From the NCBI GenBank assembly GCA_964584265.1, contig CAZOZI010000002.1, positions 66,340-130,339 on the forward strand: DNA of 64,000 bases, in the 5' to 3' direction. Numbering within the stretch: position 1 is the first letter of the stretch; every line of letters begins with the position of its first letter. The notes beneath the pieces are model-generated. The model did no database searches. It worked only from the letters and a program-made list of their open reading frames with translations, and was not told where the DNA came from. Source of the DNA: an uncultured Candidatus Saccharibacteria bacterium (lineage in GTDB: Bacteria > Patescibacteriota > Saccharimonadia > Saccharimonadales > CAYVSP01). Shown piece by piece: positions 3,244 to 25,662 of this stretch. The position numbers were made by a program, and so were the translations under genes.

Positions 3244-3245
3244 AA

Positions 3246-5400
<2,155 letters not shown>

Positions 5401-5404
<4 letters not shown>

Positions 5405-7322: not shown

Positions 7323-7914
7323 CTATCGCCTCTTTGTTTTCTTCAAGCTCATTTAAAATAAAATCAAGTTGATCACTCAAGTCGATCTGATTGCCAACGG
7401 CGGCTAATACATAGTGGTTCACAATGTCGGCCATATTTTGTTCAAAACGACTAATAAGGCGCGCTTTCTCTTCATGTATTTCTTTTTGTAACTGCTCGTT
7501 GAGAATTTGCCGTTGCTGCTCAATGGCAGCTTGTGTTTTCTGAATCGAGTCAACCGCTAATTGTTTAGCATCAGTTATTGATTTTTCGTATTTGGCAAAT
7601 TCTTCTTGGAGTGTCCGAGTAATTTCAGCCTTCATGTACTCATTTAGCTGTGAAGTAGTTAATCGCAAATCCTGCTGCAAGAACATGGCATTTTCACCGA
7701 TGATTTTCTCAAAATGGAGGCGCCCACGATTGCGCAGCTCTTCTCGAAATTCATCATTAAAAATGTGCTCAATGTCGTGCGTCGCTGCATCACCGTAGGC
7801 TTCTTGTTTTGTCTTGTCTTTGGATGATCCTGAAAGACTAAGTGCAACCCATATAAAAGCGAGCGTGGTTGCTATAAGCAACCCCAGTACTGCAACGAGA
7901 GCCCATGGATCCAT
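7297..7914 (-). CDS. atpF: ATP synthase Fo subunit b
   Basis: 205 aa with one N-terminal TM helix followed by a long charged coiled-coil region. Located upstream of atpH. Confidence 0.65.
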   Translation of the reverse strand: MDPWALVAVLGLLIATTLAFIWVALSLSGSSKDKTKQEAYGDAATHDIEHIFNDEFREELRNRGRLHFEKIIGENAMFLQQDLRLTTSQLNEYMKAEITRTLQEEFAKYEKSITDAKQLAVDSIQKTQAAIEQQRQILNEQLQKEIHEEKARLISRFEQNMADIVNHYVLAAVGNQIDLSDQLDFILNELEENKEAIVEDIKRGT

Positions 7915-7941
7915 TCTTACCCACCTTCTTTATGCATATGC

Positions 7942-8784: not shown

Positions 8785-8820
8785 AATAAACTATCCCTAG
8801 TATAACTCGACCAGCACCAA

Positions 8821-9963
8821 TCACTCAATGACGCCCAAAAGAGCATTGACAATGGTTGGGATGTCCTTTGCAGTCGTAGCCTGGCCCATGCTTAAACGTA
8901 AACTAGCCCGAGCTTTAGTTTCGGACAATCCAATGGCAGCCAGGACATGCGATGGTGTTTCGTTGCTGGCGCTACAGGCTGAGCCGGCAGCAGCCAATAC
9001 ACCCTTCATTTCCAGTGCAACAAGAAGTCGTTCGTTATCTTGGCCAGGAAGCGTGATATGTATATTATTCGGCAGACGATGCTTTAGGGAGCCATTGATA
9101 ATAGCTTGGGGAATCTGCTGCTGCAAAAGATTATAAAAATCGCGTTGCAGGCTTTGCAGTCGCTTAGCTTCCACATGACGTTTGGTTTGAACCAGCTCCA
9201 AGGCTTTAGCAAAGCCAATTGCTGCCGCTACATTCTCTGTGCCACTTCGCAGTCCATTCTCTTGCCCGCCCCCGAAAATAAGTGGTACAAGCTCCACACC
9301 GGCACGAATATAGAGCGCGCCAGATTGTTTGGGGCCATAAATCTTGCCGCCATTCAATGTCATCAAATCAACTCCCAAGCGGCTAACATGCAGGTCGAGA
9401 TAGTTAGTTGCCTGGCAGGCATCAGTATGAATATACAGCGGCAGGGATTGTTTCTTGTCTTGACGTTCACGCCGAACTTCTTGGACCAGTCGAGCAACTT
9501 CTTTAATTGGCTCAATGGTACCAATTTCATTGTTGGCATACATGATGCTTACAAGTACCGTTTGTGGCGTGATCATTTTTTTTAGTTTTGAGATATCAAT
9601 AAGACCATCGGGTTTTACTGGTGCCACGTGTCGTTTATGTTGTTCGGCTGGTTTTAGTACCGATTCGTGTTCAATTGCACTAACTATCATCTCGGCCTGC
9701 GGGAAGAGACGCATGACACCGGCAATAGCCAAGTTGTTGGCTTCAGTACCGCCAGCGGTAAAAATAATCTCTGCAGGTTTTGCTCCAAGAAGACGAGCTA
9801 CTCGCGAGCGTGCCGCAGCGAGATCATTGGCAATTTGCTGCGCCGGCAGATACGTAGCGGATGGGTTATAAAACTGCTCACTAAAATATGGCCGCATAGC
9901 CTTTAGTACCGCTTGGTCGATAGGTGTAGCTGCCGCATAATCCAAATAGATCATATTTTTCAT
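8821..9963 (-). CDS. Cysteine desulfurase (class V aminotransferase, NifS/IscS-like)
   Basis: 380 aa with LDYAAATP near the N-terminus and a GSACSA catalytic-cysteine loop near the C-terminus. Confidence 0.85.
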   Translation of the reverse strand: MKNMIYLDYAAATPIDQAVLKAMRPYFSEQFYNPSATYLPAQQIANDLAAARSRVARLLGAKPAEIIFTAGGTEANNLAIAGVMRLFPQAEMIVSAIEHESVLKPAEQHKRHVAPVKPDGLIDISKLKKMITPQTVLVSIMYANNEIGTIEPIKEVARLVQEVRRERQDKKQSLPLYIHTDACQATNYLDLHVSRLGVDLMTLNGGKIYGPKQSGALYIRAGVELVPLIFGGGQENGLRSGTENVAAAIGFAKALELVQTKRHVEAKRLQSLQRDFYNLLQQQIPQAIINGSLKHRLPNNIHITLPGQDNERLLVALEMKGVLAAAGSACSASNETPSHVLAAIGLSETKARASLRLSMGQATTAKDIPTIVNALLGVIE

Positions 9964-12874: not shown

Positions 12875-13034
12875 TCCTTCATATCACACCGGCCTGTTTC
12901 TAGCAGAGCCAGAACTCTGCCGGTGTTCTTGGCACTCTGCTATGTCAGAGACTGCGGTACTCATTCACCGTACCTATTTGTACGATTCATTCTGTTCCTC
13001 GCCTCTTCCTTGCATTGTGCACAAGTATGAAGAA
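12875..13034 (-). repeat. Family A structured intergenic element, copy 1 (sense on the minus strand), directly upstream of metG
   Basis: 160 nt. P1 TTCTTCATA/TATGAAGGA, P2 AGAGGC/GTCTCT, P3 CGTAC/GTACG, P4 ACACCGGC/GCCGGTGT. Shares junction blocks with the five other copies. Confidence 0.75.
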
Positions 13035-13060
13035 CCGATGTACTGGTCTATTGTATCAGT

Positions 13061-13582
13061 TTATAGCAGTGATACTTGCTGGTTGTCTGACTTTTCTGGC
13101 GTTGAATTAACGCCCGAATTAGGTATAGAAATGTTAAGCTTATCAGCTAGCCTGTCAATAAATACCATTTGTGCCTTCAATAGTTTTGTTTTGGCAGTGG
13201 CCAAATCAAACCATTCAGCTCGATCGTTTTCTAAAAACTCCTGTGTTTTGCCAGACCGAGGTGGCCACTCCATGGTAAAAGTTGATTCAAACTTAAGATG
13301 TTCTAAATGTACATCGCCTTGAACCGCCCAAATGTAATTGGTTTTACTACTACTTTTGGCTGTACCCAGATTAAGAAGTTTACCTGTAGGTGGTCTTATG
13401 CCTAATTCTTCTTCAAATTCTCGCTTAGCTGCAGCTAGATGGTCTTCGTCATTATTATGCTCGCCTTTTGGGATGGACCATACATCTTTTTTTTCCCAAA
13501 ATGGTCCAGCTAGATGGACCAGCAAAACCTCAATGCTGTTACCTCTTTTTCTATAAACCAATATCCCGGCGCTTTGTTTCAT
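13061..13582 (-). CDS. Nudix hydrolase
   Basis: 173 aa with Nudix box GEHNNDEDHLAAAKREFEEELGI. Confidence 0.85.
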   Translation of the reverse strand: MKQSAGILVYRKRGNSIEVLLVHLAGPFWEKKDVWSIPKGEHNNDEDHLAAAKREFEEELGIRPPTGKLLNLGTAKSSSKTNYIWAVQGDVHLEHLKFESTFTMEWPPRSGKTQEFLENDRAEWFDLATAKTKLLKAQMVFIDRLADKLNISIPNSGVNSTPEKSDNQQVSLL

Positions 13583-13610
13583 AAGATTTAAGCTATCCCT
13601 TTTACAATAA

Positions 13611-13687
13611 TGGTGGGCTCTACAGGGCTCGAACCTGTGACCTCAGCAATGTGAATGCTGCGCTCTAGCCAACTGAGCTAAGAACCC
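13611..13687 (-). tRNA. tRNA-Val (anticodon CAC), CCA encoded
   Basis: Hand-folded cloverleaf from GGGTTCTTAGCTCAGTTGGCTAGAGCGCAGCATTCACATTGCTGAGGTCACAGGTTCGAGCCCTGTAGAGCCCACCA. The anticodon loop is TTCACAT and the T-loop is TTCGAGC. Confidence 0.93.
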
Positions 13688-13781
13688 AATGTAGCTCGAT
13701 TATACCTCAAGCACAGCCTGGACTTGACGCTAAAGTTGGTTGCTGTCAAGATAAACATAAGCAATTAAGAAAGGTCAAATA

Positions 13782-14024
13782 ATGCCTCCACAAAATCAGA
13801 CGTTAAATCCTCAGCCACCAAACTCGCCGACACCGGCTGACAACCAGCCAATGACACCAGGTCCAACGCAGACACCTCAACAGCCTAACGTACCTACGCC
13901 GCCGACTGGTCCAGTCGTTCCTGAACAAGGCGGTAAGAAAAGTAAACGACTTTTGCTATGGATTGCAACGATAGTTATCGTGCTCGCAGGAGCAGCAGCT
14001 TATTGGTTTTTGGTAAAGTCTTAA
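13782..14024 (+). CDS. Hypothetical proline-rich protein with a C-terminal TM anchor
   Basis: 80-aa ORF with an ATG start, a P/Q/T-rich N-terminus and a hydrophobic C-terminal helix. Confidence 0.45.
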   Translation: MPPQNQTLNPQPPNSPTPADNQPMTPGPTQTPQQPNVPTPPTGPVVPEQGGKKSKRLLLWIATIVIVLAGAAAYWFLVKS

Positions 14025-14088
14025 ATCTCAAACAAATCCTCGACGCGAACGCCAGTTAGTCAATAAATTCGGCGAATCATATTGATAA

Positions 14089-14242
14089 CTGATCTGCTTG
14101 AGTGCAGTGCAAGGAGAATTTGAGGAGCAAAGTGAGCTGTATTGAAATACAGTGAGCGCGCGCCGGAAAATTCGACACAGCAATGTGCCAAGAGCCGGCA
14201 GAGTTGCCAGCTCTGCCGGCAATCAGGACGGCGACAGATTAG
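14089..14242 (+). repeat. Family A structured intergenic element, copy 2
   Basis: 154 nt. P1 CTGATCTG/CAGATTAG, P2 GAATTT/AAATTC, P3 CTGTAT/ATACAG, P4 GCCGGC(AGAG)/(CTCT)GCCGGC. Lies between the convergent 80-aa ORF and the trehalase gene. Confidence 0.75.
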
Positions 14243-15496
14243 CTAATCAATAAATTCTTTGCAGAATCGCTCAAAAACAGCATTCGTCCAGCCAAAGCCG
14301 GTCTGCGAAGGATAAAGCCCTTTAGCCGGCGGATCTAGCGGATTCACCACATTGTATTTTTCCAAAAAAACACCGTGGACTTTAAACCAATCCAGGTTGG
14401 TGTGGAGCCACTTTTCGGCAATACGCTTTGCGTCATGATTGTAGCCATAGCGCTGTAGTCCCTTAACTACCAAAAAATGCAGCGGCGCCCAGCCATTTGG
14501 GTAGGCCCACTGGGTCGGCACGGCGCCGGGTACAAATTTACTGAACACTGGCGTATCGGTCGTAGCCAGACCACCTTTGTTTTCAAAGCGTTTCAGCATT
14601 TTGACCATCTGGGCGGCTTGATTACTGTCTACCATACCGGCCCACATTGGATAAAACCCGGCTAGAGAGTTCACGCTGCCGCGTTTACGCTTTGCAAAAT
14701 TATAATCATAGTACCAACTGCGCACACTGCTCCACATAAGGTCTTGCATAACCATTTTGCGATGTTCTGCTGCTTCCTTCCATTTCTGGACAGAAGCTTC
14801 ATCTTTAACATGCTCATAGTAGCGGACAAAGTCCGTCTCGTATTTATAAAGTAAGGCATTTAGATCAACTGCTACATAGTCTAAACACTTGCGGTTAAAG
14901 CGTGAGGTCATATCCCAACCGCTTTCCGTTTCGGCCAAATCATGAATATAGTTAAAGTCATAGAAGCGTGACAAGCCCTGGTAAACTTGCCTGGCGTTAG
15001 GTTTATTAACCCCCATCCAAACCGTCTGATATTCGGCTTCTGCTACGCTTATAGCTTCACTAAGCCATTTGTCGTCGAGTTTATAGGCATCGAATACATC
15101 CCATATGAAACTAGTTAGGAATGGTGGCTGTGAATGCCCCGTTAAATAAGTACGCGAAGCATTGGGAATAGTTTTAAAACGCCTAAAAAGCACCAGAAGA
15201 TTTTCAATAATACCTATTATCAACTCCTTGTGTTCCTCGTCGAACATACCCTGGACCATAAAATAGCTATCCCAGTAATAGAGCTCGTTAAAATCAAATT
15301 CATGACCTTCTTCATAAGCGGGTACTAGATAAGGCTTTGGCAAGCCAACTAGCGTTTCATCATCTTTAGGGTGATAACGAATTAATTTTTCCCAATAGCC
15401 ATGAATGTAATCGCGCGCCGGTTGAACATCCCTAGCAGTCAGCTCACCATGCGAACGAAACAGCCCTTTTACAAGTTGAAAGGTTTTATTTAGCAT
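14243..15496 (-). CDS. Trehalase (glycoside hydrolase family 37-like), no signal peptide
   Basis: 417 aa with YYWDSYF and PTQWAYPNGWAP motifs characteristic of GH37 trehalases. Confidence 0.8.
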   Translation of the reverse strand: MLNKTFQLVKGLFRSHGELTARDVQPARDYIHGYWEKLIRYHPKDDETLVGLPKPYLVPAYEEGHEFDFNELYYWDSYFMVQGMFDEEHKELIIGIIENLLVLFRRFKTIPNASRTYLTGHSQPPFLTSFIWDVFDAYKLDDKWLSEAISVAEAEYQTVWMGVNKPNARQVYQGLSRFYDFNYIHDLAETESGWDMTSRFNRKCLDYVAVDLNALLYKYETDFVRYYEHVKDEASVQKWKEAAEHRKMVMQDLMWSSVRSWYYDYNFAKRKRGSVNSLAGFYPMWAGMVDSNQAAQMVKMLKRFENKGGLATTDTPVFSKFVPGAVPTQWAYPNGWAPLHFLVVKGLQRYGYNHDAKRIAEKWLHTNLDWFKVHGVFLEKYNVVNPLDPPAKGLYPSQTGFGWTNAVFERFCKEFID

Positions 15497-16443: not shown

Positions 16444-16558
16444 ATCAAGACCAAACAAAAAAGACCTTACCCTCATATTTGAGGGAATAAGAAGATGAAG
16501 ATATTTACTTTGGGATGATTACTTAGAGTTCAACAGGGAGAAAGAACGGCGAGTAAAG
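16444..16558 (-). repeat. Family B intergenic module, copy a (short form), containing the typA terminator
   Basis: Aligns with 22113-22290 and 24703-24880. Starts immediately after the typA stop. Confidence 0.65.
16457..16491 (-). terminator. Intrinsic terminator downstream of typA
   Basis: Minus-strand stem CTTA(TT)CCCTCA / TGAGGGTAAG followed by GTCTTTTTTG. Confidence 0.6.
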
Positions 16559-18385
16559 TTATTTATTGTGGTGTTTGCGTTTTACCGGGTTAAGTTCTTG
16601 CTTGCGCAGCCTTAATGATTTAGGCGTAACTTCCAATAATTCATCGTCCTCGATAAAGTCTATGCACTCTTCTAGACTGAAGATAGTTGGTGGTGTTAAT
16701 TGGACTACGCCGTCGCTGGATGAGCTGCGCATATTGGTCAAATGCTTGGCTTTGCAAACATTCATTTCCATGTCATCCTGACGTTTGTTGATGCCAACGA
16801 TTTGGCCAGCGTAAACATTCTCGCCGGGGCCAATCAGAGTTTCACCTCGCTCTTCAACCATTTGCAGAGCGTAAGGCGTCGTCACACCGGTTTCAAAAGC
16901 TATGATGACCCCATTGCGAAGCTGTTGGAGCACAGCACCAAGCGGTTCGTAACCCATCATCAGTGAGTTCATGATAACGGTGCCTTTAGTGTTGGTCATT
17001 AAGATGTTGCGCAAACCAAGTAAAGCCCTGGTTGGCATTTTATAAACTAGTTTTGTCATTCCTTTAGAATTGGCAAATTGCTCTTTTAAAACGGCCCGCC
17101 GGGTGCCGAGCTCCATCTGGATTGCACCGACATGTTCGGCAGGCACTTCTATCATAAGTTCCTCAATGGGTTCTAATTTCTGGCCTTTTTCTTCTTTCAA
17201 AACGACCTGGGGACGTCCGACTTCAAACTCATAACCTTCGCGGCGCATAGTTTCGATTAACACGCTCAGATGCAGTTCGCCCCGACCAGACACCACAAAG
17301 CCAATGTCATTATTTTCGACGCGCAAACCGACATTGGATTCCAATTCCTTATGCAAGCGTTCTCCAATTTGGCGGCTGGTAGTGAATTCGCCCTCTTTGC
17401 CTTTGAAAGGAGAAGTATTGGGGCCAAGATAAATCTTAAGGGTAGGTGCCTCGACCTCTAGCACTGGTAATGCTTCTGGGTTGTTGGCGTCAGCAATGGT
17501 CTCGCCGATCTGGGCATCACTAACGCCCGTCAACTGAATAATGTCACCAGCTACACCCTCTGCTACTTCAAACTTGGAGGTTCCCTGGCTCATGAATATG
17601 CTGTCAATCTTAGTGTTTGCACGGCTGCCGTCTTTTTTGCATAGAACGGCAGTATCGCCTGGTTTAACATGGCCGCGGGAAACCCTGCCAACCGCATATT
17701 TACCCTTGAAACTATCCCAAGCCAAAGCCGTTACCAACATCTGGAAGGGCTTGTCGCGCTGCACTTTAGGCGCTGGAATGTGGTCTTTAATAGCCTCAAA
17801 TATTACGCTCAAATCAGCAACGTCTGTCTCTGGATTAGACGGTACGGCCTGCCAGGCTTTGCCGGCGCGGCCAATCGAGTAATAAGTTGGGTAATGCAGT
17901 TGGTCTTCATGTACGGCTAGTTCTAGAAACAGGTCAGCAATTTCGTCTTCAACTTCATTAATCCTAGAGGCCGGTTTGTCAATTTTGTTGATTATAACAA
18001 TCGGTTTAAGCTCATAGGCCAAGGCTTTGCTCAGCACAAACTTGGTTTGGGGCATCGGGCCTTCCTGGGCGTCAACTATCAAAATACAGCCATCGGCCAT
18101 GTTCAAAGTCCGTTCGACTTCACCTGAGAAGTCGGCGTGACCCGGAGTATCAATAATGTTGATGCGAAAATCGCCGTACTGGGCAGCTGTAACTTTGGCG
18201 GTGATAGTAATGCCGCGCTCGCGCTCCTGGGCACCACTGTCCATAATCAGTTCCTGGCTCATTTCGGCCTGGTTGTCGCGAAAAGTTTTAGACTGCTTTA
18301 ATAGCCCGTCAACCAAGGTTGTCTTACCATGATCGACGTGGGCGATTATGGCGATATTTCTAATCTTGTTAGGGTCTTGTTTCAT
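16559..18385 (-). CDS. typA: Translational GTPase TypA/BipA
   Basis: 608 aa with G1 motif AHVDHGKTT and an EF-G-like domain order. Confidence 0.95.
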   Translation of the reverse strand: MKQDPNKIRNIAIIAHVDHGKTTLVDGLLKQSKTFRDNQAEMSQELIMDSGAQERERGITITAKVTAAQYGDFRINIIDTPGHADFSGEVERTLNMADGCILIVDAQEGPMPQTKFVLSKALAYELKPIVIINKIDKPASRINEVEDEIADLFLELAVHEDQLHYPTYYSIGRAGKAWQAVPSNPETDVADLSVIFEAIKDHIPAPKVQRDKPFQMLVTALAWDSFKGKYAVGRVSRGHVKPGDTAVLCKKDGSRANTKIDSIFMSQGTSKFEVAEGVAGDIIQLTGVSDAQIGETIADANNPEALPVLEVEAPTLKIYLGPNTSPFKGKEGEFTTSRQIGERLHKELESNVGLRVENNDIGFVVSGRGELHLSVLIETMRREGYEFEVGRPQVVLKEEKGQKLEPIEELMIEVPAEHVGAIQMELGTRRAVLKEQFANSKGMTKLVYKMPTRALLGLRNILMTNTKGTVIMNSLMMGYEPLGAVLQQLRNGVIIAFETGVTTPYALQMVEERGETLIGPGENVYAGQIVGINKRQDDMEMNVCKAKHLTNMRSSSSDGVVQLTPPTIFSLEECIDFIEDDELLEVTPKSLRLRKQELNPVKRKHHNK

Positions 18386-18388
18386 TGG

Positions 18389-19579
18389 TTATGAAGCTAC
18401 AAAAGTTAGGGCATATCCGATCTGGCCGGCTCTGCCAGCTCGACCGATGCGGTGCACGTAATCTTCATAGGTTTGGGGCAATGAGTAGTTAATAATATGC
18501 GTAATATCAGCTATATCAATCCCTCGTGCGGCTACGTCAGTCGCCACTAAAATGCTGACTTCATCATTTTTAAAACTGTTGAGTGCTCTTTGGCGCTGGC
18601 CTTGGCTTTTACCGCCATGTATGGCACTGGCCTTAAAGCCGCGCGCCTGTAGTTCCTTACTCAAGCGCTCCACGCTGCGTCTTGTTTCTTCAAAGACTAA
18701 AACTTTCTCAACCTCACCTTTTATAAGAATGTCGTGCAACTTATCTATTTTTTGGCCGGTAGAACTGTAGGCTACCACGTCTTGGTGGACACTTTCGCTT
18801 GTCTCGCCGCTTTTGATAGAAATGGTTACAGGATCGCTCGAAAAAGTTTGAATAAGATCACTGACTCGCCTATCCAAAGTGGCTGAAAAAAAATATGACT
18901 GGCGCGGCTCGCTCAGTTTGCTAAGAATAACCCGGACATCATGGACAAATCCCATATCCAGCATGCGGTCGACCTCATCAAGCACAACAACGTTAAATGA
19001 CGCCAGCTGCAGGCTACGGCGTTCAATATGGTCCTTTATTCTGCCTGGGGTTCCAACCACGATGCGCGGATTTATGCGCAGGTCACGCAGCTGCGGGTTC
19101 ATCGGACTGCCGCCAATCAGGGTAGCAGTGTTTATTCCGCTGCGGGCAGCCATCCAACGGAATTCTTCCTGGATTTGCTGGGCAAGCTCCCGAGTTGGCG
19201 CAATAATCAGAGCTTTGGCACTTCTTTGTTCCATAAGCTGGTTAATAATCGGTATGGCAAAAGCAGCTGTTTTGCCAGTTCCGGTATCTGCAATGCCAAT
19301 AATGTCTTTGCCGTTTAGAGCCAGCGCTATGGTCTGGTCCTGTATAGGCGTAGGAGTTCTATAGCCTTTATTGCTTAGGTTTTGCTTCAGCAGTTGGGCA
19401 ATCCGGAAATTGCTGAACATATTAGTTGGGTTGTAGCTGTCAGCTTCCTTAGGACTGGCAGCCCGCACAAAACGAGCCGGGTCAATATACTGGCCGCGGC
19501 GACGCCCGCTGTTATTTCGGGTTTGATTATTGGTTCGAGCGCGATACTTAATAGAAGATGAGCGATACGAATAAGACAT
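18389..19579 (-). CDS. DEAD-box ATP-dependent RNA helicase
   Basis: Motifs ADTGTGKT, DEVD (DEAD variant), SAT and HRIGRAGRAG. Confidence 0.9.
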   Translation of the reverse strand: MSYSYRSSSIKYRARTNNQTRNNSGRRRGQYIDPARFVRAASPKEADSYNPTNMFSNFRIAQLLKQNLSNKGYRTPTPIQDQTIALALNGKDIIGIADTGTGKTAAFAIPIINQLMEQRSAKALIIAPTRELAQQIQEEFRWMAARSGINTATLIGGSPMNPQLRDLRINPRIVVGTPGRIKDHIERRSLQLASFNVVVLDEVDRMLDMGFVHDVRVILSKLSEPRQSYFFSATLDRRVSDLIQTFSSDPVTISIKSGETSESVHQDVVAYSSTGQKIDKLHDILIKGEVEKVLVFEETRRSVERLSKELQARGFKASAIHGGKSQGQRQRALNSFKNDEVSILVATDVAARGIDIADITHIINYSLPQTYEDYVHRIGRAGRAGQIGYALTFVAS

Positions 19580-19749
19580 TAAAAAAAGAATCCTTTTGGT
19601 TTAAATAGTTACTACTTGTCGGTAATGAAATCGAGTAAGTAAACTATAAAACCCGGATTCATTGAAACAATCCATATACATTAGCATGTTACTAATTATA
19701 TGTCAACGATGTAGAACAGATATTTCTTTGTGTCTTGTTAGAAGAAAAT

Positions 19750-20553
19750 TTAGCGGCAGGCGGGCCAACTCCTAATATTTGATGGGCCTAAACCCCAGGA
19801 TGATCCGTCAAATACATCTGTGTGTATTACTGCAAGATCTCCATAGTCTGTCCGAATGTCAAGCCCAGTAAGAGTCAAGCTGCCAATTGTGCCATATAGG
19901 TAACCATTACCGCTAATACTCGGCCCTACAACATGAGCACCTAAACTAACTCGTTGAATTTCAGCTTGATAACGAGGTCCCATAATTGCACCTTTTGGTT
20001 TTTGAAATAAAAATCTGACATTTTCATATATGCCTTGTATTGTATTATGACAAGCCCATACTTTAGTCTTATTATTGCCTTGCCCAAGGTAAGCGTAGTT
20101 ACTATATGTATCGTTTGTAAATGTAGCATTCATCTCCGCTGCAAACGTATACCATGTTTGAGTCCCAATAATGCCATCAACAGCTATATTATTAGCTTTT
20201 TGCCATTCTATAGTGGCGTTTTTAGTGCCTGAATCAAAGTAACCATTTTGAGAAACAAACTGACCGGCTTTATGCATCAAGAAATATTGGGCTACCTTCA
20301 CGCAACCAGTATTATTTGGCTTACTATCACTTATAGTAGCCGGAATACCACCAAAACCATAACAGGCATTGGCAGTAAGCAAATATTCCCATGGTGAAGT
20401 GGCAAAGCTGCGGTACAGGAAGATTCCTCCGCCAACGGCTCCAAATATAAGCACAAAGGCTACTAGTTGTTTAAGTTTAGTGTTAGGAATTAATGCCTTA
20501 GTAATACGCTTCAGTTTACTTTGCTTTTTACTATTTTTCCTTTTTGCTGGCAT
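19750..20553 (-). CDS. N-terminally anchored peptidoglycan-binding-domain protein, paralog 1 of 3
   Basis: 267 aa. It has a basic N-terminus plus TM (MPAKRKNSKKQSKLKR...LVAFVLIFGAVGGG), a PG_binding_1-like segment (IEWQKANNIAVDGIIGTQTW), four conserved Cys and a C-terminal Cys-Arg. Confidence 0.6.
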   Translation of the reverse strand: MPAKRKNSKKQSKLKRITKALIPNTKLKQLVAFVLIFGAVGGGIFLYRSFATSPWEYLLTANACYGFGGIPATISDSKPNNTGCVKVAQYFLMHKAGQFVSQNGYFDSGTKNATIEWQKANNIAVDGIIGTQTWYTFAAEMNATFTNDTYSNYAYLGQGNNKTKVWACHNTIQGIYENVRFLFQKPKGAIMGPRYQAEIQRVSLGAHVVGPSISGNGYLYGTIGSLTLTGLDIRTDYGDLAVIHTDVFDGSSWGLGPSNIRSWPACR

Positions 20554-20649
20554 TTTCTGATCTTTTTGATTTTAGTTCTTCTTATGGTTCAAACAACTGG
20601 ATAGATAGAACAAATTATCTAGCCTGGGAGATATATACAAAGTAATTGT

Positions 20650-21459
20650 TTAACGGCAGGTAGTCCAGTATCTTACTTCATTTGTAGCAAAATTAATTTT
20701 TTCTCTACCATCAGCACCTTTGAAATTCGAACCATAACCCTCAACAGTAATCCAATCGCCTTGTAGAATCGAAAGGCTCCCCTCCAAGCTACCCGCTGTG
20801 CCATAGTAATATGTGTTGCTAGACTTATTATCCTTTTGAGTGCGGTTATTTTCTATCCAGTATCCATAACGTGGCCCAAGCGATGCACCGGCGGCTTTGA
20901 TGAATTGCAACTTGAAATTATATACACCGCCGAAAGCTGATGTATAGTTTTGGCAGCCCCACATCCTAACTTGATTCTCGAACTGGCCAAGATAGCTATA
21001 GCCAGGAGGAACATAGTAGTTAGTTGGGGCATTCACCGCTGCCGCCATAGTAAGCCAGGTCATTGGTCCTACAACGCCATCAGCAGTAAGGTTAGCCCCC
21101 CTCTGCCAAGCTCGTATGTTTTGATCTAGCGAAATATTGTAATCTTGGTGTTCGGCCCAATATAAACCAGCATACTTACCTAAAAACTTGTCCACAGCTT
21201 TGGTGCAACTACTCCAGTTATTATATGCTGTCCCGGCTGGGGGCGCAGAAAGCTTAGCAGGTTGTCCACCGTAGTTTGGGCAGGATGAGGCTTGTAAGAA
21301 GTACTCCCAGGGTGTTAAGGCAAAACTTCTATATAGGAAGTAGCCGCCTCCTACAGCCCCAAAGACTAGGATAAAGGTTACTAGTTGTTTGAGTTTGGTA
21401 TTAGGAACTAAGGCTTTAGCGAAACGTTTTAGTTTGCTTTGTTTCTTACGGGCTGGCAT
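20650..21459 (-). CDS. N-terminally anchored peptidoglycan-binding-domain protein, paralog 2 of 3
   Basis: 269 aa with the same architecture (IRAWQRGANLTADGVVGPMTW) and the same ...TCR ending. Confidence 0.6.
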   Translation of the reverse strand: MPARKKQSKLKRFAKALVPNTKLKQLVTFILVFGAVGGGYFLYRSFALTPWEYFLQASSCPNYGGQPAKLSAPPAGTAYNNWSSCTKAVDKFLGKYAGLYWAEHQDYNISLDQNIRAWQRGANLTADGVVGPMTWLTMAAAVNAPTNYYVPPGYSYLGQFENQVRMWGCQNYTSAFGGVYNFKLQFIKAAGASLGPRYGYWIENNRTQKDNKSSNTYYYGTAGSLEGSLSILQGDWITVEGYGSNFKGADGREKINFATNEVRYWTTCR

Positions 21460-21566
21460 TTTTGTTTATCCTTTGTGGTAACTATTAAGGATAAGTGTAG
21501 GTGCAGTTAGTTAAAAATACAAATTAGTTATCCACAGTCAAACTAACGCAAGTGTTAGCCGCCCTC

Positions 21567-22055
21567 TTAGCTGCCGAAGATTTTGTGCCAGAGCCTAACT
21601 AATAATTTTCCGTTTCTCTTCGCCTCTGCTTGGTTTCTCTGCGCCCTTGCAAGCCTAATTTCACCGAGTTGAATTTCACGTTCTCTACTTATCTCAGAAT
21701 ACCATACTTGGTAGTCTTCATAGGCTTGCTTCGGAAATAACGCAACAGAAACTGCATTTGGATTCCCACTGCATCTTACAGTTTTATCATCTGCCACCTC
21801 AACTATGCAACCGTCAGCAAAATAGATATACCATTCCTCACCAAATTTTTCAGATAATTGCCTTGGTAATTCCGCTGGAGAACCAAATGTTACACCAAAA
21901 GACCCTAGATAATATCCATCCCCTAAATCCATATCCCTTTCAGGATTATTTACTATCGGACAAGACGCTACATCGAAGTCATCCCTAAGTACTCGATGGA
22001 TATTATGCCAATCTTTATTTACCTCTATTATTCCTGCACCTTCCACATATTCCAT
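21567..22055 (-). CDS. Hypothetical cytoplasmic protein
   Basis: 162-aa ORF with an ATG start and no motif. Sits between PG-binding paralogs 2 and 3. Confidence 0.45.
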   Translation of the reverse strand: MEYVEGAGIIEVNKDWHNIHRVLRDDFDVASCPIVNNPERDMDLGDGYYLGSFGVTFGSPAELPRQLSEKFGEEWYIYFADGCIVEVADDKTVRCSGNPNAVSVALFPKQAYEDYQVWYSEISREREIQLGEIRLARAQRNQAEAKRNGKLLVRLWHKIFGS

Positions 22056-22112
22056 GATAATAGTGTAAATTTATTAACCATACTTGCAAGCATGAGCATT
22101 TACAGATTAGGA

Positions 22113-22290
22113 ACAAACAAAAAAGCACTATCTAAATTAGATAATGCTCATTTGGTGGAGCACCTCGAAAAAAGTTCACCCCTCATTATTGAGGAAATAC
22201 GTAGATGTAGGTATTTACTCTGAGATTATTATATAGAACACAAACGAAAGAAAGAACGGCGGCAAAAGATAGCTGTCCCCTAAGGGTATA
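22113..22290 (-). repeat. Family B intergenic module, copy b (long form)
   Basis: Aligns with copies a and c. Contains hairpins CCTCA-ATAA-TGAGG and AGCATTATCTAA-TT-TAGATAGTGCT followed by a T-run on the minus strand. Confidence 0.65.
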
Positions 22291-22310
22291 ATTTACAGTA
22301 ACGGATTAAA

Positions 22311-23105
22311 CTAGCGGCATTGTGCCAGGTTAGATACGTTCCAGTATTCAATCGTATGACCTCCGCTTGCATTGGCAGAATCAGGAAAGATGCTATCTCC
22401 ATTAGGCATGTTCAAACTACCACTCCAAGCTGCCGTAGTGCCACCAAAATAGGTATTAAACCAGCCAGAGTTGTATATTTCACTGCCCCCACCACCAATG
22501 CTTTTTCTATATATTTTTACAAACAAAGGTGGACCTAACGTTGCACCTTGTGGCTTCATAAAGCGCAAGTTAACATTATATGTTCCTCCGTAAGCGGTGG
22601 TATACGTCTGGCAGCCCCATTCCACTACTCCATTTCCAAACGTGCTTAGATACGAATAGTTTCCAGCAGGAGCGCTTGAGCCAACGCTTTGAGCATTTAG
22701 TGCGACCTGAAGTGTATACCATGTTTGCGGACCCACCGCACCATCAGGAGTTATGTTATTGGCTTTTTGCCATTGGACGACAGCGGCTCTTGTGTATGGG
22801 CCAAAGCCCACTTCGTTGCTTGTCCCTAGTCCTGCTCGTTCCCATAACACGACATGCAGGGTGACCATACAACCATCTGGTCCATGACCTTGGGTATATA
22901 GGCCTGGTACGCCATTGATATTTGGGCAATTATACGCTCTCAACGTATACTCCCACGGTGAATAAGCAAAGCTTCTGTAGAGGAAGTAACCGCCCCCAAC
23001 AGCTCCGAAGACGAGGATAAAGGCTAGGAGTTGTTTGAGTTTGGTGTTTGGAACAAGGGCTCTTCCAAAACGCTTCAGTTTGCTTTGTTTCTTTTTGACT
23101 GGCAT
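22311..23105 (-). CDS. N-terminally anchored peptidoglycan-binding-domain protein, paralog 3 of 3
   Basis: 264 aa with the same architecture (VVQWQKANNITPDGAVGPQTW) and the same ...QCR ending. Confidence 0.6.
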   Translation of the reverse strand: MPVKKKQSKLKRFGRALVPNTKLKQLLAFILVFGAVGGGYFLYRSFAYSPWEYTLRAYNCPNINGVPGLYTQGHGPDGCMVTLHVVLWERAGLGTSNEVGFGPYTRAAVVQWQKANNITPDGAVGPQTWYTLQVALNAQSVGSSAPAGNYSYLSTFGNGVVEWGCQTYTTAYGGTYNVNLRFMKPQGATLGPPLFVKIYRKSIGGGGSEIYNSGWFNTYFGGTTAAWSGSLNMPNGDSIFPDSANASGGHTIEYWNVSNLAQCR

Positions 23106-23223
23106 GTTAATAAACCTTGTTTGATTTTAGTTGTTCTTATGGTTCAGTATAGGAAGTTTTTTATAAGATATCAAATAGTTATCCACAGCTAAGTTATTTG
23201 GGTTATTGCTTTAATATCTTAAG

Positions 23224-24123
23224 TCAAACGTCAGGTGTGTAATCACGGCTCTCACGTTTACCATTTTCGTCGACATAGGTTGCTTTTAGATCTTTTAGAT
23301 CTGGGTATTCGTGAGGGTAATCAAGATACCAGTAGGGTCGATTCCTCTGGTCACGGTACTCGGCTTGGCCGTAAGCGACCATATAGTTGGTATATACACG
23401 GGGTGCGCCTATTACGTCTAATACTTTCTGGTATGGCTCAACTACTTGATCCTCTACTCGCCACTGCAAAGTGTCAAGATTATAAATAAGATAAAACAGC
23501 GAATCAATCGCAAACATAAACACCGAAATTATAATAATTGAGATTAGCCCTCCGGTATTAAGTAGGAGTAACGACAAAATCACCACTGTGCCAAGTGTTC
23601 CAGAAATAAACCATTCCAATCCGGATAGTCTACTGCCAATTAAACCAACTTGGGTGCTACGGGCATTGATAAGGCCGGATAAGCCAAACAGCATATTGCT
23701 GTAGGCGGCTGCGCCCTCTGGACTTTTCTTGTCGCAGTCATTAATTGCTTTTACTAGATTTTCAAAAGCGTAATTTGTCTTGTAGTAATACGCAACATGG
23801 TGGATTTGAGTTGCTTGTATATATGACTCGATTGCATTGTTCATGTGCTTGACATACTTTTTGTCTTCGAGCGGAAGAGTGAGGTAGTAGAAGTTCAATA
23901 ATGCTGAGCGTTCATTATTCGCCTGTGATCGAATATTTACCATCCGTGTTTGCCTGTGAGCTAAAACATACGCATTGAAAGTTCCGAAGAGGAATGTAGA
24001 CATGCCTATTAATGCAATTGCCGATGAGTTCTTAGCGTGAAAATTTATTAAGCCAAACAGCGTAACAATAAAAATGATTGCTGCATAACGCAGTGGCCGA
24101 TTGTGAATATAACGGCTGTTCAT
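23224..24123 (-). CDS. Hypothetical membrane protein (two N-terminal and two C-proximal TM helices)
   Basis: 299-aa ORF. Only the hydrophobicity pattern supports the call. Confidence 0.5.
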   Translation of the reverse strand: MNSRYIHNRPLRYAAIIFIVTLFGLINFHAKNSSAIALIGMSTFLFGTFNAYVLAHRQTRMVNIRSQANNERSALLNFYYLTLPLEDKKYVKHMNNAIESYIQATQIHHVAYYYKTNYAFENLVKAINDCDKKSPEGAAAYSNMLFGLSGLINARSTQVGLIGSRLSGLEWFISGTLGTVVILSLLLLNTGGLISIIIISVFMFAIDSLFYLIYNLDTLQWRVEDQVVEPYQKVLDVIGAPRVYTNYMVAYGQAEYRDQRNRPYWYLDYPHEYPDLKDLKATYVDENGKRESRDYTPDV

Positions 24124-24150
24124 TAACGATATTTTAGCATAAGCTGAACG

Positions 24151-24690
24151 CTATAATTTTTGTTGTATGTCATCAATCCTTTTGTTTATAAAGGGCGAGA
24201 AATACCCCTCGTAAACTTTTTGTAAATTAACCGACAACCAATCTATGCCTGTTATCCGCCGCCGACAGTTTTCAGAACCACAATTACATGCCCATTTTGA
24301 TACCCATTGATTGTCATTTTCCCACATGCAATAATCTGGATTAATTTCTTCGCCAGGATAAATATTTCTTCTGGCCACAAAAGTAACTTCATCACTCATC
24401 CATATATTGGGCTCACAAGAATGGTTAGTGTATATAGCTACATCCCTAGGGGTGTTAATCTTGGTAGCAATATACAGATCTTCATCTATAGGCACAGCGC
24501 TATCTTTAATAGTTCGCCCGGCAATAATATCTTTTCGTTTGAAAACGTTCCCGCCCCATATGAGTAGAGTTTCGTCACACTTAATTAATTCAGTTGCAAA
24601 CATACCCATACCGCTTATAGATGATGGTTTAATCTCTATCCTGGGATCTATCCAGGATCTTGGTATGTAGCCAAGACATTGTTTATTCAT
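24151..24690 (-). CDS. SET-domain protein (putative lysine methyltransferase) with a post-SET Cys cluster
   Basis: NHSCEPN motif plus C-terminal CNCGSENCRRR. The track start at 24711 is a TTG inside a T-run, so I prefer ATG at 24690 (MNKQCLGY...). Confidence 0.75.
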   Translation of the reverse strand: MNKQCLGYIPRSWIDPRIEIKPSSISGMGMFATELIKCDETLLIWGGNVFKRKDIIAGRTIKDSAVPIDEDLYIATKINTPRDVAIYTNHSCEPNIWMSDEVTFVARRNIYPGEEINPDYCMWENDNQWVSKWACNCGSENCRRRITGIDWLSVNLQKVYEGYFSPFINKRIDDIQQKL

Positions 24691-24702
24691 ACGATTGATA
24701 TT

Positions 24703-24880
24703 AACAAACAAAAAAGCACTAGAAAATGATTCTAATGCTCATTTGCCAAGCGCACCTCGAAAAAAGTTCACCCCTCATAATTGAAGAAATAAGAAGATGG
24801 CGGTATTTACTCTGGGATGATTACATTGAATTCAAAAGAGAGTAAGAACGGCGAAAGAAGTTAGTAGTCCCCCTAGCGGT
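24703..24880 (-). repeat. Family B intergenic module, copy c (long form)
   Basis: Aligns with copies a and b. The hairpin AGCATTAGAA-TCATT-TTCTAGTGCT followed by a T-run ends 13 nt before the SET gene ATG. Confidence 0.65.
24735..24845 (+). CDS. Possible 36-aa small ORF inside Family B copy c (MLICQAHLEKSSPLIIEEIRRWRYLLWDDYIEFKRE)
   Basis: This is the only uninterrupted version of a plus-strand reading frame that shows synonymous-type differences among the three Family B copies. No Shine-Dalgarno is visible. Confidence 0.25.
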   Translation: MLICQAHLEKSSPLIIEEIRRWRYLLWDDYIEFKRE

Positions 24881-24934: not shown

Positions 24935-25210
24935 ATGGGTTTGTTCGAGGAACTAAGCAATATCACGCGCAATGAAGCCAAAGCTGGTGTAGCTCAATTT
25001 ATTAATAAAACTGAACAAGAAGATGGTGTAGACGGAACACTGCGAGCACAGGAAATACCAGGCTTACGCTTTCTTGTTGAAGAAGGTCTAACACAGTTAA
25101 ATAATATGGAACAACTTTCAGAACGTGACATATATGTAATTGATGCTACGATGGCAATGTTTGTTGGACCTTTGACCGAAGTTGCCATAATTCGTAAGTT
25201 TAAAGAATAG
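24935..25210 (+). CDS. Hypothetical protein
   Basis: 91-aa ORF with an ATG start and no motif. Confidence 0.4.
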   Translation: MGLFEELSNITRNEAKAGVAQFINKTEQEDGVDGTLRAQEIPGLRFLVEEGLTQLNNMEQLSERDIYVIDATMAMFVGPLTEVAIIRKFKE

Positions 25211-25216
25211 AACCAA

Positions 25217-25247
25217 ACAAAAAAGACCTTTCAAATACTGAAAAGTC
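25217..25247 (-). terminator. Intrinsic terminator downstream of ssrA
   Basis: Minus-strand hairpin AGACTTTTCA-GTATT-TGAAAGGTCT followed by TTTTTTG. Confidence 0.6.
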
Positions 25248-25251
25248 TCTT

Positions 25252-25662
25252 ATGGTGGAGCTGCCGGGTACTACCCCCGGGTCCGCTAGTTTATCTGGTT
25301 AGTCTTCTACAGGCATAGGTCATTTGATTACTGCAAGACATAGAAATGACCAAAAAGTCTTACAGGTTGATTCAATTGTCTTAACCAAATGTCGAATCAA
25401 ACATTTGATGCATCCAGATTATATGACACGCACTGGCAATATCTGGCGTCAGGCTAGGCGCGGTTAAAGCTAATTAAGCCTTAACAAAAGATGGAGCTAG
25501 CGGAGAGATAGAAGCAACAAAGTTGTCTACCTTACCTTGAATGCTAGCTACAAATTCGCGAATTCGTGATTTTGCACTTATTCGTGGTTGCCATATGACG
25601 CTTAGCAAGCGACCTGCTGATCTAACCGATAAAGTCCAACGTCAAGCTTAAAATTCAGCCCC
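25252..25662 (-). ncRNA. ssrA: tmRNA (ssrA)
   Basis: The 5' end is GGGGCTGAATTTTAAGCTTGACG and the 3' end is GGACCCGGGGGTAGTACCCGGCAGCTCCACCA. The acceptor stem GGGGCTG/CAGCTCC includes the G3-U70 alanine identity pair. An internal tag-like frame runs from GCA after AATAAGT to TAA. Confidence 0.85.

Follow-up and report, generated by a model that had tools for sequence, protein, structure and literature searches.

Three intergenic copies of one repeat lie in the 64,000-nucleotide stretch of Saccharibacteria DNA analyzed here (the window), and each carries features both of a transcription terminator and of a broken small gene. What are they? A first-pass annotation had described them as a three-copy repeat with codon-like conservation, and this was borne out by the repeat finder, by a core pattern, and by the translations. 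The repeat finder returned a family (D3) at 16450-16570 (copy a), 22160-22280 (copy b), and 24752-24872 (copy c), with 64 to 83% identity to copy b, and grouped the left ends of the module copies into families D5 and D7. A 21-nt degenerate core pattern matched the three module sites only, with 0.03 matches expected by chance in the window. The translations quoted earlier were correct, including the in-frame TGA codons of copies a (16496-16498) and b (22221-22223) and the TAA of copy c (24843-24845). The sequence CAAACAAAAAAG occurs exactly four times in the window (0.09 expected), in copies a, b, and c and in the flank of the tmRNA gene, ssrA. There, CAAACAAAAAAG, a hairpin, and TGGTGGAGC (25214-25261) form a fourth copy of the module left end, which the annotation lacked.

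A minus-strand hairpin with a T-run had been attributed to every copy. This holds for copies b and c, whose hairpin arms indeed differ in sequence while staying complementary, but not for copy a. In copy a the rest of the terminator hairpin and a 9-nt core have been deleted, what remains matches the present ssrA terminator without a mismatch over 18 nt, and the visible hairpin (CCCTCAAATATGAGGG) is made of coding sequence of the tail described below. Reading the structures as terminators was correct, but their original owner, ssrA, had been overlooked. All three copies are downstream of minus-strand genes, for which the hairpins and T-runs of the window still look like usable terminators that may be active at present. 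The ssrA gene adjoins copy c; it scored above the RF00023 gathering threshold of 47 bits and was missed by ARAGORN. Its 3' end, GCUCCACCA, reads TGGTGGAGC on the plus strand (25253-25261, the last 9 nt of ssrA), and its terminator folds with -17.2 kcal/mol. Coordinates are collected in Table 1.

Table 1. Features of the three repeat copies and of the ssrA region (window coordinates)
Feature	Coordinates	Strand	Basis
Copy a, leftover T-run and first terminator-stem bases (CCAAACAAAAAAGACCTT)	16451..16468	-	Sequence, junction table
Copy a, recombinase tail pseudogene	16457..16567	+	P0079 tail, 59% over 37 aa, E 3e-10
Copy b, relic of recombinase codons ~480-505 (..SIYRLGTN)	22047..22122	+	tblastn
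Copy b, T-run (22114-22125) and terminator hairpin (22149-22123)	22114..22152	-	Terminator scan, fold
Copy b, intact 9-nt att core TGGTGGAGC, reverse complement of last 9 tmRNA nt	22153..22161	+	Junction table
Copy b, recombinase tail pseudogene	22161..22283	+	P0074 and P0079 alignments, codon table
Copy c, T-run (24705-24716) and terminator hairpin (24740-24714)	24703..24743	-	Terminator scan, fold, sequence
Copy c, mutated att core, TGCCAAGCGC versus family TGGTGGAGC	24744..24753	+	Junction table, sequence
Copy c, recombinase tail pseudogene	24753..24875	+	P0079 tail, 85% over 40 aa, E 9e-19
91-aa ORF between copy c and ssrA	24935..25210	+	No family match
Decayed 3' end of serine recombinase gene running into ssrA (..RIEPNKKDLSNTEKSLMVELPGTTPGSASLSG-stop)	25144..25278	+	tblastn with split-form recombinases
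Intrinsic terminator of ssrA, fourth left-end copy	25214..25252	-	Hairpin 25251-25221 and T-run; terminator scan, D5/D7
tmRNA gene ssrA, integration target	25253..25662	-	Rfam RF00023, 64.9 bits, full model 1-374

The plus-strand peptide of the module (HLEKSSPLI..RRWRYLLWDDY..RRKKLVVP-stop) is homologous to the C-terminal tail of large serine recombinases (LSRs) of about 550 to 590 aa. Two full-length, unsplit LSR genes, P0074 (590 aa, contig L022) and P0079 (L023), carry hairpin, core, and tail within one open reading frame. Copy b aligned by tblastn with amino acids 524 to 585 of P0074 over 62 codons in a single frame (64.5% identity, E 4e-18) and matched the P0079 tail at 75.8% over 62 aa (E 1e-27). 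The tails of copies c and a matched P0074 at 67.5% and 48.6% (E 1e-3), respectively. Read on the plus strand, the terminator segment of copy c codes for recombinase linker residues NKKALENDSNAHL, 71% identical to P0074 residues 530 to 543, and that of copy b for linker residues NKKALSKLDNAH. The codon 480-505 relic of copy b lies upstream of the remainder of that copy and in frame with it, and it matched the L006 recombinase (aa 480 to 516) at 50% and P0046 and P0047 at 64 to 67% over 39 to 45 aa (E about 2e-8); upstream recombinase homology in the same frame as the tail was also found in L002 and L021. The LSR family has Pfam Resolvase and Recombinase domains. An AlphaFold2 model (mean pLDDT, 84.5) matched unnamed serine-integrase/att complexes best in Foldseek (9y66, 9dxf, 9dxd, and 9dxh), followed by Bxb1, phiC31, and an LSR-DNA complex (4kis). 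The dual-use codons (residues 529 to 553) are modeled as a disordered linker and the tail (residues 552 to 581) as one helix.

In related Saccharibacteria and Patescibacteria contigs, the same module forms the far boundary of islands inserted at the 3' end of ssrA. In L006 the module is at 1843, the tmRNA gene is at 9079-9456, and a 534-aa LSR gene (7539-9143) overlaps ssrA by 65 nt; in L005 the module is at 8003, the LSR gene is at 12920-14629, and the tmRNA gene is at 14505-14907. Further module and tmRNA pairs were found in L008, L013, L014, and L017, and tandem arrays consist of six modules within 5 kb in L016 and two in L014. The island LSR gene runs through a terminator hairpin, crosses the final 9 nt of ssrA (TGGTGGAGC), and continues into ssrA antisense, a pattern seen in 53 of 77 family members and, by eye, in about 8 more. 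The tail stands at the opposite island end in the same frame, which is shared across the junction: LSRs read ..MVE/LxGxAP, the latter part being ssrA antisense, and modules read ..LVE/HLEKSS. The module peptide is the missing true C terminus of the island LSR, its last 40 codons. Each of 27 junctions compared has an A-run, a variable hairpin, (A/T)TGGTGGAGC, and then either tmRNA body or tail, with the TGGTGGAGC core as the point where the two types diverge. Most fold as a stem followed by a U-run, the stem sequences are unrelated, and a start codon (ATG, TTG, or GTG) is always found at the junction.

We therefore consider it very probable that the modules are ssrA-distal or internal junctions of Saccharibacteria/Patescibacteria LSR islands whose insertion point is the very 3' end of the tmRNA gene. 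In such an element the LSR gene would itself contain the attachment site, some 40 codons short of the stop. Along the plus strand of that gene, the codons for ..IYRLGTNKK double as the U-run of the opposite strand, about nine further codons as its terminator hairpin, and xTG GTG GAG as the tmRNA end CUCCACCA. There follow HLEKSSPLI, whose DNA may be an att arm, and lastly a 30-residue helix ending ..RRKKLVVP-stop; in copy b the tail starts with a near-invariant 25-nt block, ACCTCGAAAAAAGTTCACCCCTCAT, the putative attP arm. Recombination inside TGGTGGAGC would join the LSR body to ssrA, so that the island hairpin became the new ssrA terminator and the LSR frame continued into ssrA antisense, while the old terminator, fused to the 40-codon tail, would form the far island end. 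The next island to enter at ssrA would rejoin the earlier LSR 3' end to a new tail, giving internal attP-like junctions and tandem arrays. We infer the exact crossover position, only from where junction sequences diverge, and likewise the order of island insertions. No circular form or empty site was observed, and the contigs with P0074 and P0079 are 2.3 to 2.4 kb long, a size at which an excised circle is indistinguishable from an internal tandem-array junction.

Elsewhere the tail is constrained as protein. Among 12 loci chosen solely by a 24-nt DNA pattern, the tail frame is open for at least 35 codons in 11, and 6 stop at the same Pro-stop. In frame, its pN/pS is 0.34, the shifted frames give 0.76 and 1.25, and diversity at codon positions 1, 2, and 3 is 0.30, 0.12, and 0.46. 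These values show purifying selection on the tail outside the window. The tail may matter for recombinase function. The synonymous-type substitutions noticed at first pass are also real (pN/pS 0.26 to 0.44 among the three window copies), and attributing them to selection on a peptide rather than an RNA was correct.

In the window itself the tails have decayed. All three have an in-frame stop. Copy b keeps the conserved stop (22281-22283). The att core of copy c contains a 1-nt insertion that breaks the frame, and its ancestral Pro-stop is gone owing to a 1-nt insertion. Besides carrying its deletion, copy a runs at its end into the stop codon of bipA (16559-16561, minus strand). Of the recombinase genes, only the relic beside ssrA is left in the window; it has two in-frame stops upstream and matched P0052 at 48% over 54 aa and many other split-form recombinases at 50 to 60% over about 30 aa; its ssrA-internal part is trivially conserved, and its upstream part is weak evidence. 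Because all recombinases have been lost, the window tails are unselected pseudogene fragments. The three repeats are thus decaying junction scars of mobile islands rather than a novel small protein or a quirk of the genetic code, and the earlier suggestion of relics of a duplicated gene end carried with inserted cassettes was essentially right. Islands would have inserted successively at the tmRNA gene end, each leaving a scar of an ssrA terminator copy and a broken tail. Copy a lies downstream of bipA and a DEAD-box helicase gene, both of core-like GC content and outside the island in relatives, so that a simple tandem-insertion history needs an extra rearrangement. The 91-aa frame between copy c and ssrA had no tblastn match in any related locus and may be leftover cargo of the innermost island, or spurious.

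The annotation had also offered a small-protein family with one intact 36-aa member (24735-24845). That member is not intact, since homologues extend nine codons further to the conserved Pro-stop and mostly have GAA, AAA, or CAA/CAG at the position of its TAA, and as stated the proposal found no support. A related reading, which we regard as unlikely, is an independent gene of about 45 aa that starts at the ATG, TTG, or GTG of xTGGTGGAG, was fused to the recombinase only secondarily, and yields, at the island boundary, a product such as a recombination directionality factor or regulator. L001 does have an intact 45-aa frame behind a promoter-like TTAACA-N18-TATAAT, about 34 small ORFs (32 to 114 aa) have been called in metagenomes, and the frame is conserved when detached from the recombinase. 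The start codon at almost every junction, however, follows from the tmRNA terminus (CCA plus one base) rather than from selection; upstream lies a terminator hairpin, with no ribosome-binding site seen by eye in the sequences read; and the segment is the C terminus of two full-length recombinases, with the in-frame homology upstream described above. All 10 ORF clusters looked up were unnamed singletons, and the database ORFs are fragments called at island boundaries. Such a gene would be compatible with the tail being an LSR C terminus; the two are not mutually exclusive. Far less probable is an RNA element on the minus strand (a small RNA, a 3'-untranslated-region element, or a displaced tmRNA 3' portion) with an accidental plus-strand frame. 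The minus strand does end like a tRNA-type gene, in GCUCCACCA, hairpin, and U-run, always downstream of minus-strand genes in the window, but no Rfam family matched even at E ≤10, folding energies are indistinguishable from those of shuffled sequences on both strands (z, -1.6 to +0.5), the acceptor-like end has no T-arm before it, and resemblance to the tmRNA body stops at 9 nt. Substitutions have a period of 3, pN/pS is low in the plus frame only, and the tail in L004 has a one-codon indel.

To the idea that copies a and b are still functional genes whose TGA is translated as Trp, by recoding or by descent from a code 4 donor, we give virtually no credence. TGA accounts for two of the three interruptions, at sites with TGG in relatives, and L016 has TGA at the second Trp position too, but its frame shifts immediately afterwards, and TGG to TGA is a single G-to-A transition. 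Of the 46 open frames in the window with 200 codons or more, 13 end in TGA, which is also the tail's own stop in L015, L017, and L023. In copy b there are Trp-to-Cys, Asp-to-Tyr, and Phe-to-His changes as well, and the recombinase upstream is truncated; copy a is without an att core. Since TGA is a normal stop codon in this window, TGA for TGG is ordinary decay, and the UGA-reading donor proposed at first pass is rejected.

Junction scars of LSR islands can be set beside several known systems. The L016 array resembles integron cassette arrays in its short recombination-site modules between one or a few promoterless genes, beside a fixed site, but lacks both an IntI tyrosine integrase and recombination at attC hairpins; integron-like mobilization of single cassettes in trans would be pure speculation. 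Classical tRNA/tmRNA-gene islands (Islander/TIGER resources; PMC4383910, PMC12424338) likewise split and restore their target, leave a displaced fragment at the far end, and form tandem arrays at ssrA. They use tyrosine integrases, whereas here just 9 nt of the target are repeated, together with a terminator equivalent in function but unrelated in sequence, and the restoring sequence is recombinase coding sequence. The SSV-type ("suicidal") tyrosine integrases of archaeal viruses and plasmids have attP within the integrase frame (PMC7253208; reviewed in PMC8371274), and integration into a tRNA-type gene splits the integrase gene to opposite element ends. That split costs a large part of the enzyme; in the bacterial serine recombinase, detachment affects no more than the final ~40 of ~560 codons and leaves both the catalytic and the DNA-binding domains intact. 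The nearest parallel comes from the ssrA-specific islands of Dehalococcoides, whose serine recombinase is DsiB (McMurdie et al. 2011, BMC Genomics 12:287, PMC3146451). They form tandem arrays downstream of ssrA flanked by repeats of its 3' end. The 3' end of dsiB always overlaps the attachment site, with the stop codon in ssrA or the next island, and its authors suggested that dsiB may be fully functional only on a circular element or beside an island supplying the 3' fragment (PMC3146451). Tandem arrays at the ssrA end and an LSR gene overlapping the attachment site are shared, a likeness of layout between Chloroflexi there and Patescibacteria here. For the Dehalococcoides islands the insertion point is the T-loop (ssrA positions 333/334) and the repeat is 20 bp long, whereas those described here use the last 9 nt and supply the terminator. 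The C-terminal portion in Dehalococcoides was described as divergent and probably nonfunctional (PMC3146451); here, in contrast, the detached 40 codons are conserved, evolve under purifying selection, and are found rejoined in two full-length genes.

The peptide encoded on the plus strand of the three modules is the C-terminal tail of a large serine recombinase (LSR), detached from its gene by integration at ssrA, as follows from recombinase ends that match it in frame and from two unsplit genes. In the related metagenome loci L006 and L005, the interval between module and tmRNA gene is 6.5 to 7.2 kb and carries plus-strand genes, the last of which encodes a serine recombinase (534 and 569 amino acids, respectively). 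The recombinase open reading frame (ORF) crosses the A-run, the hairpin, and ATGGTGGAG and then runs through the tmRNA gene in antisense for 65 nt (L006) or 125 nt (L005). Its C terminus in L006 reads ..SSIYRLGTNKKDLGEVSLSNMVE/LRGIAPRSESSLTTLLQA, and the module at the opposite end of that island reads, in the same frame, ..LLVE/HLEKSSPLIIEEIRRWRDLIWDDY.. A search with the reconstituted protein returned 77 recombinase family members. The C-terminal motif (M/L)VELxGxAPxS, which is the antisense translation of the tmRNA T-arm and which the ssrA of the window yields as MVELPGTTPGSASLSG, is present in 53 of them and, by eye, in about 8 more, such that approximately 61 of the 77 end in ssrA-antisense residues. 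The two members that bear the tail are P0074, a 590-amino-acid protein from locus L022, and P0079, from locus L023. A single ORF in L023 holds, in order, TTTACAGACTAGGAACAAACAAAAAAG, the hairpin, TGGTGGAGC, ACCTTGAAAAAAG.., and the tail, which closes with CCC TGA.

The parent protein carries Pfam domains PF00239 and PF07508 and has the LSR architecture of a resolvase catalytic domain, a recombinase domain, and a zinc ribbon with a coiled coil. The AlphaFold2 model of P0074 has a mean pLDDT of 84.5 and a long coiled coil at residues 388 to 491. The best Foldseek matches to this model were unnamed serine-integrase/att complexes, followed by Bxb1, phiC31, and the 4kis LSR-DNA complex, with E values to 9e-16; phmmer against PDB sequences found nothing. 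The distant family members P0106 to P0114 have C termini of the form ..GGPxG[TA], not VELxGxAP; their genes may extend into 3' ends of tRNA-type genes other than ssrA, in which case the device would be at work at further targets.

A pattern scan of species-representative genomes gave one match, in a Candidatus Saccharibacteria metagenome-assembled genome (L001), where this frame stays open as an intact ORF of 45 codons. A word-index protein search with that 45-amino-acid ORF returned no match, and exhaustive phmmer was needed; queried with 36 residues of copy c, it returned about 34 small ORFs of 32 to 114 amino acids. These share LVEHLEKSSPLIxEEIRRWRxLLWDDYxxYK..RRKKLxVP behind unrelated N-terminal extensions, and many read NKKA or NKKD, which is the A-run of the terminator. 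Viral contigs were scanned with both the DNA pattern and the peptide pattern as a possible origin, and neither gave a match. In the longer contigs (L005, L006, L008, L013, L014, and L017), the tmRNA gene always lies to the right of the module and on the opposite strand. An intact tmRNA gene stands at one end of the array in the window, and likewise in L005, L006, L008, L013, and L014.

All 27 junctions from the window and the loci follow one plan, with an A-run, a variable hairpin, and (A/T)TGGTGGAGC, followed by either the tail or the tmRNA body, which at the junction reads TG[CG][CG]GGG.. On the minus strand, most junctions form a stem with a U-run behind it, and the stems are unrelated in sequence (GACCUC/GAGGUC, GCAUCAG/CUGGUGC, and GCAUUAUC/GAUAGUGC). 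The observation in the first-pass annotation that the hairpin arms differ but stay complementary is explained by a hairpin that, after insertion of the island, must terminate ssrA while encoding recombinase residues. In the P0074 model, T-run, hairpin, core, and conserved DNA block together encode a low-confidence unstructured linker (residues 529 to 553), and residues 552 to 581 form a single helix. On this model, the dual-use DNA therefore falls in a stretch of the protein with hardly any sequence requirement. In the reconstituted attP, a dyad that could place the crossover dinucleotide is, by eye, a loose pseudosymmetry only (GAG-CAC-CTC; GAGG..TTTATCAA versus TTGAAAAAAG..CCCTC).

In the window itself, the tmRNA gene is complete by Rfam and lies 370 nt from copy c; unlike Rfam, ARAGORN gave no tmRNA at this position. 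In the Rfam alignment, ssrA carries about 72 extra nt behind its tag-coding region, and posterior probability is low across the pseudoknot region. The sequence CAAACAAAAAAG occurs at exactly four sites in the 64 kb, compared with 0.09 expected: the three copies and the ssrA terminator. That terminator, with 20 nt beyond it, constitutes a fourth copy of the left end of the module, which a count of three had overlooked. A 21-nt degenerate core pattern matches the window at the three copies only (0.03 expected). The repeat finder placed the copies at 64 to 83% identity to copy b and reported the left ends of the modules as separate repeat families, with left-end family D5 showing 73% identity over 63 nt. 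The three translations proposed earlier were right, their interrupting stop codons were verified in the sequence, and the terminator scan detected the minus-strand hairpin and T-run ending both copy b and copy c.

Features of the window, in order of subject
Feature	Position	Strand	Description
ssrA (tmRNA gene)	25253-25662	-	RF00023, 64.9 bits, full model
Copy a, repeat	16450-16570
Copy a, stop	16496-16498		TGA
Hairpin downstream of bipA	16469-16485		CCCTCAAATATGAGGG, T-run 7 nt later
bipA stop codon	16559-16561
Copy b, repeat	22160-22280
Copy b, unsplit-type junction	22047-22283	+	About 25 LSR codons (..SIYRLGTN), linker/hairpin, intact core, and tail in a single frame
Copy b, match to P0074	22095-22280		P0074 amino acids 524-585, E 4e-18
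Copy b, stop	22221-22223		TGA
Copy c, repeat	24752-24872
Copy c, stop	24843-24845		TAA, premature
ORF between copy c and ssrA	24935-25210	+	91 amino acids
Recombinase 3' relic	25144-25278		Decayed, next to ssrA
PG_binding_1 paralogs	19750-20553, 20650-21459, 22311-23105	-	About 265 amino acids each
Repeat family D2/D4	37075-37182, 38251-38550, 50420-50719		72-75% identity
tRNA-Arg	59441-59514	-
Borderline second tRNA match	59539-59613	-	29.5 bits, cutoff 29
Repeat pair	59565-59594, 62026-62055		2.5 kb apart

Copy b keeps all nine nucleotides of TGGTGGAGC, the hairpin, the T-run, and about 20 nt of flank from the ssrA end, and on the minus strand its hairpin is preceded by GCUCCACCA, the universal tmRNA 3' end. 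It is 76% identical to P0079 over 62 residues (E 1e-27), and its match to P0074 is contiguous and in frame. It is damaged by its TGA, by several radical replacements, and by absence of the recombinase body. Copy c shares 85% identity with the P0079 tail (E 9e-19); its core is mutated and has gained 1 nt, which shifts the frame, and it has a premature stop and has lost the terminal stop. Copy a matches the P0079 tail with an E value of 3e-10; it retains T-run and stem over 18 nt without a mismatch to the current ssrA terminator and then jumps directly into the tail, with the core deleted and a TGA stop, and it abuts the bipA stop codon. An intact tail ORF is absent from all three copies (TGA in a, TGA in b, and TAA plus frameshift in c), and the three tails are pseudogene fragments. 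The bipA stop codon falls within the relic tail of copy a, and the sole hairpin downstream of bipA is built from tail codons; the scar seems to have been reused as a terminator.

Outside the window, the tail is under purifying selection. In a sample independent of ORF calls, 12 metagenome loci matching a 24-nt DNA pattern at the tail start, 11 are open for at least 35 codons, 6 end at the shared Pro-stop, and an early stop occurs in L016 only. Over codons 9 to 27, which lie outside the pattern, 17 external copies gave a pN/pS of 0.34 in frame versus 0.76 and 1.25 in the shifted frames, and pairwise diversity at codon positions 1, 2, and 3 was 0.30, 0.12, and 0.46. These data show directly that the 40 detached codons belong to the protein as a conserved portion and are kept by selection. 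The first nine tail codons (ACCTYGAAAAAAGTTCACCCCTCAT) have far lower synonymous variability than the rest; in seven copies not chosen by pattern, pS was 0.26 for those nine, 0.50 for codons 9 to 27, and 0.74 for codons 28 to 38. The low pS of this block points to constraint acting at the DNA level, with an attP arm beside the crossover as the simplest reading.

Several other readings of the modules were weighed. Selection on a peptide, as claimed in the first-pass annotation, holds insofar as the tail is constrained as coding sequence, but the peptide is an LSR C terminus and not a free-standing gene. Separate translation of the tail, as a rival to a role within the recombinase, is conceivable but improbable; the 10 small-ORF clusters looked up (10 of 10) were unnamed singletons, which is what chance-called boundary fragments would look like. 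A displaced 3' portion of tmRNA would share more than the junction; aligned to the 230 nt at the 3' end of ssrA, the module is alike only in the last 9 nt and the terminator, and the T-arm is absent. Rfam at E values up to 10 gave tmRNA only and nothing for the module, and folding z-scores of -1.6 to +0.5 on both strands were no better than those of shuffled sequence. With no likeness to the tmRNA body or T-arm, no Rfam family, and no excess folding, the core is not a structured RNA, and it is not a piece displaced from tmRNA either. A donor reading UGA as Trp, suggested earlier from the interruptions, fails because the homologues have TGG and TGA stops the tails of L015, L017, and L023; in the window TGA is in use as a stop and ends 13 of 46 long frames. 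The TGA codons of copies a and b need no special genetic code.

The modules and ssrA bracket islands, the LSR gene crosses the junction in the frame of the tail, and unsplit genes exist. From this arrangement we infer crossover within TGGTGGAGC, by which the island's own hairpin would become the new ssrA terminator. Successive insertions beside ssrA would leave internal attP-like junctions, of which copies b and c would be examples, and copy a, as the outermost, would be the oldest. Relic hairpins may now act as terminators of upstream minus-strand genes, and the tail presumably contributes to recombinase function; a preprint searched for the role of the phiC31 integrase C-terminal tail yielded no statement on it. 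It seems to us rather unlikely that the split is in addition a built-in switch, with the state of the DNA setting competence for integration or excision and the arrays beside ssrA serving as an integron-like platform for collecting and shuffling accessory genes in the very small Patescibacteria genomes. Under such a switch, full-length LSR with its tethered 30-residue helix would be made only from the excised circle or an internal tandem-array junction, and the enzyme from the integrated copy would lack the tail and finish in random residues read from ssrA antisense.

As in the ssrA islands (ssrA-GI) of Dehalococcoides with recombinase DsiB, the LSR gene overlaps att and its stop lies outside the island, 65 nt into ssrA in L006 and 125 nt in L005. 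The Dehalococcoides insertions fall in the T-loop and are associated with a direct repeat of 20 bp of ssrA, whereas here divergence begins right after the last 9 nt and the T-arm is not duplicated. A second small serine recombinase, as a counterpart to the DsiA that accompanies the CcrB/DsiB-clade enzyme, was not noted in either L005 or L006. The authors of the Dehalococcoides work speculated that the recombinase may be fully functional only on the circle or beside an island giving the 3' fragment (PMC3146451). Displaced 3' fragments left by islands at tmRNA genes are a classical finding, and the integrase in such cases is usually of the tyrosine type (PMC4383910); archaeal SSV-type tyrosine integrases have their own gene split upon integration (PMC7253208, PMC8371274). 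A tyrosine catalytic domain was not found here, the enzyme being a serine recombinase, and the only principle shared with the SSV type is an attP inside the integrase gene. Different from these systems are the Patescibacteria host, the insertion at the last 9 nt with a terminator supplied from coding sequence, and the conservation of the detached 40 codons. A full-text search found no paper combining Saccharibacteria with tmRNA or a genomic island, weak evidence given its incomplete coverage.

These results lend sequence-level support to what was speculative in Dehalococcoides: integration can split the gene of the serine integrase that carries it out, and selection can still keep the detached piece. 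They explain the puzzling "small ORF" of conserved sequence that turns up sporadically in gene calls from CPR metagenomes, and they provide a marker of ssrA island boundaries in Saccharibacteria, TGGTGGAGC followed by ACCTYGAAAAAAGTTCACCCCTCAT, for a region of lineage-specific accessory genes that include peptidoglycan-binding paralogs and SET-domain and bestrophin-like proteins. The DNA is of dual use, as the terminator of an essential host gene lies opposite to codons for a protein linker that is disordered. Genome engineering uses large serine integrases as tools, and a natural state-dependent C-terminal module would be of interest to that field.

Pfam analysis of 17 neighboring ORFs found no integrase gene beside the target in the window; one was found in L005 and in L006. 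The decayed recombinase relic next to ssrA is weak evidence, and with a relic and no recombinase ORF, the window holds relics rather than active islands. A classical island with its integrase is ruled out in the window, where bipA and the DEAD-box helicase gene are housekeeping genes. No circular form or empty site was seen, and the unsplit genes of P0074 and P0079 are on short contigs. The accessory stretch from 19.5 to 25.5 kb has a GC content of 0.38 to 0.43, lower than its surroundings. As cargo common to the window and other islands, tblastn returned only bipA, trehalase, and MFS genes, which are flanking core genes. The bipA and helicase genes upstream of copy a resemble core genes in GC content, and in L008, L013, and L017 they are found beyond the island; the module adjoins trehalase instead in L005, L018, and L020; the placement of bipA and helicase between copies a and b requires a rearrangement.

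Other arrays include two modules in L014 and six in 5 kb in L016. The latter lie in tandem at positions 2007 to 6782 of the 162-kb contig Ga0097691_1000011, with one ORF between neighbors; core and tail are intact in some of them, and the rest show decay, a layout like that of an integron cassette array. The PG_binding_1 paralogs of the window all fall in the low-GC stretch from 19.5 to 25.5 kb, two in the interval from copy a to copy b and the third in that from copy b to copy c, with their 5' 161 nt 71 to 80% identical (family D1). The 91-amino-acid ORF beside ssrA overlaps the weak recombinase relic at its 3' end and has no Pfam match and no relative in any fetched locus. A borderline second tRNA match lies beside tRNA-Arg, with a repeat pair nearby, and this region may be a second integration scar at a tRNA gene. 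The D2/D4 repeats are probably paralogous genes.
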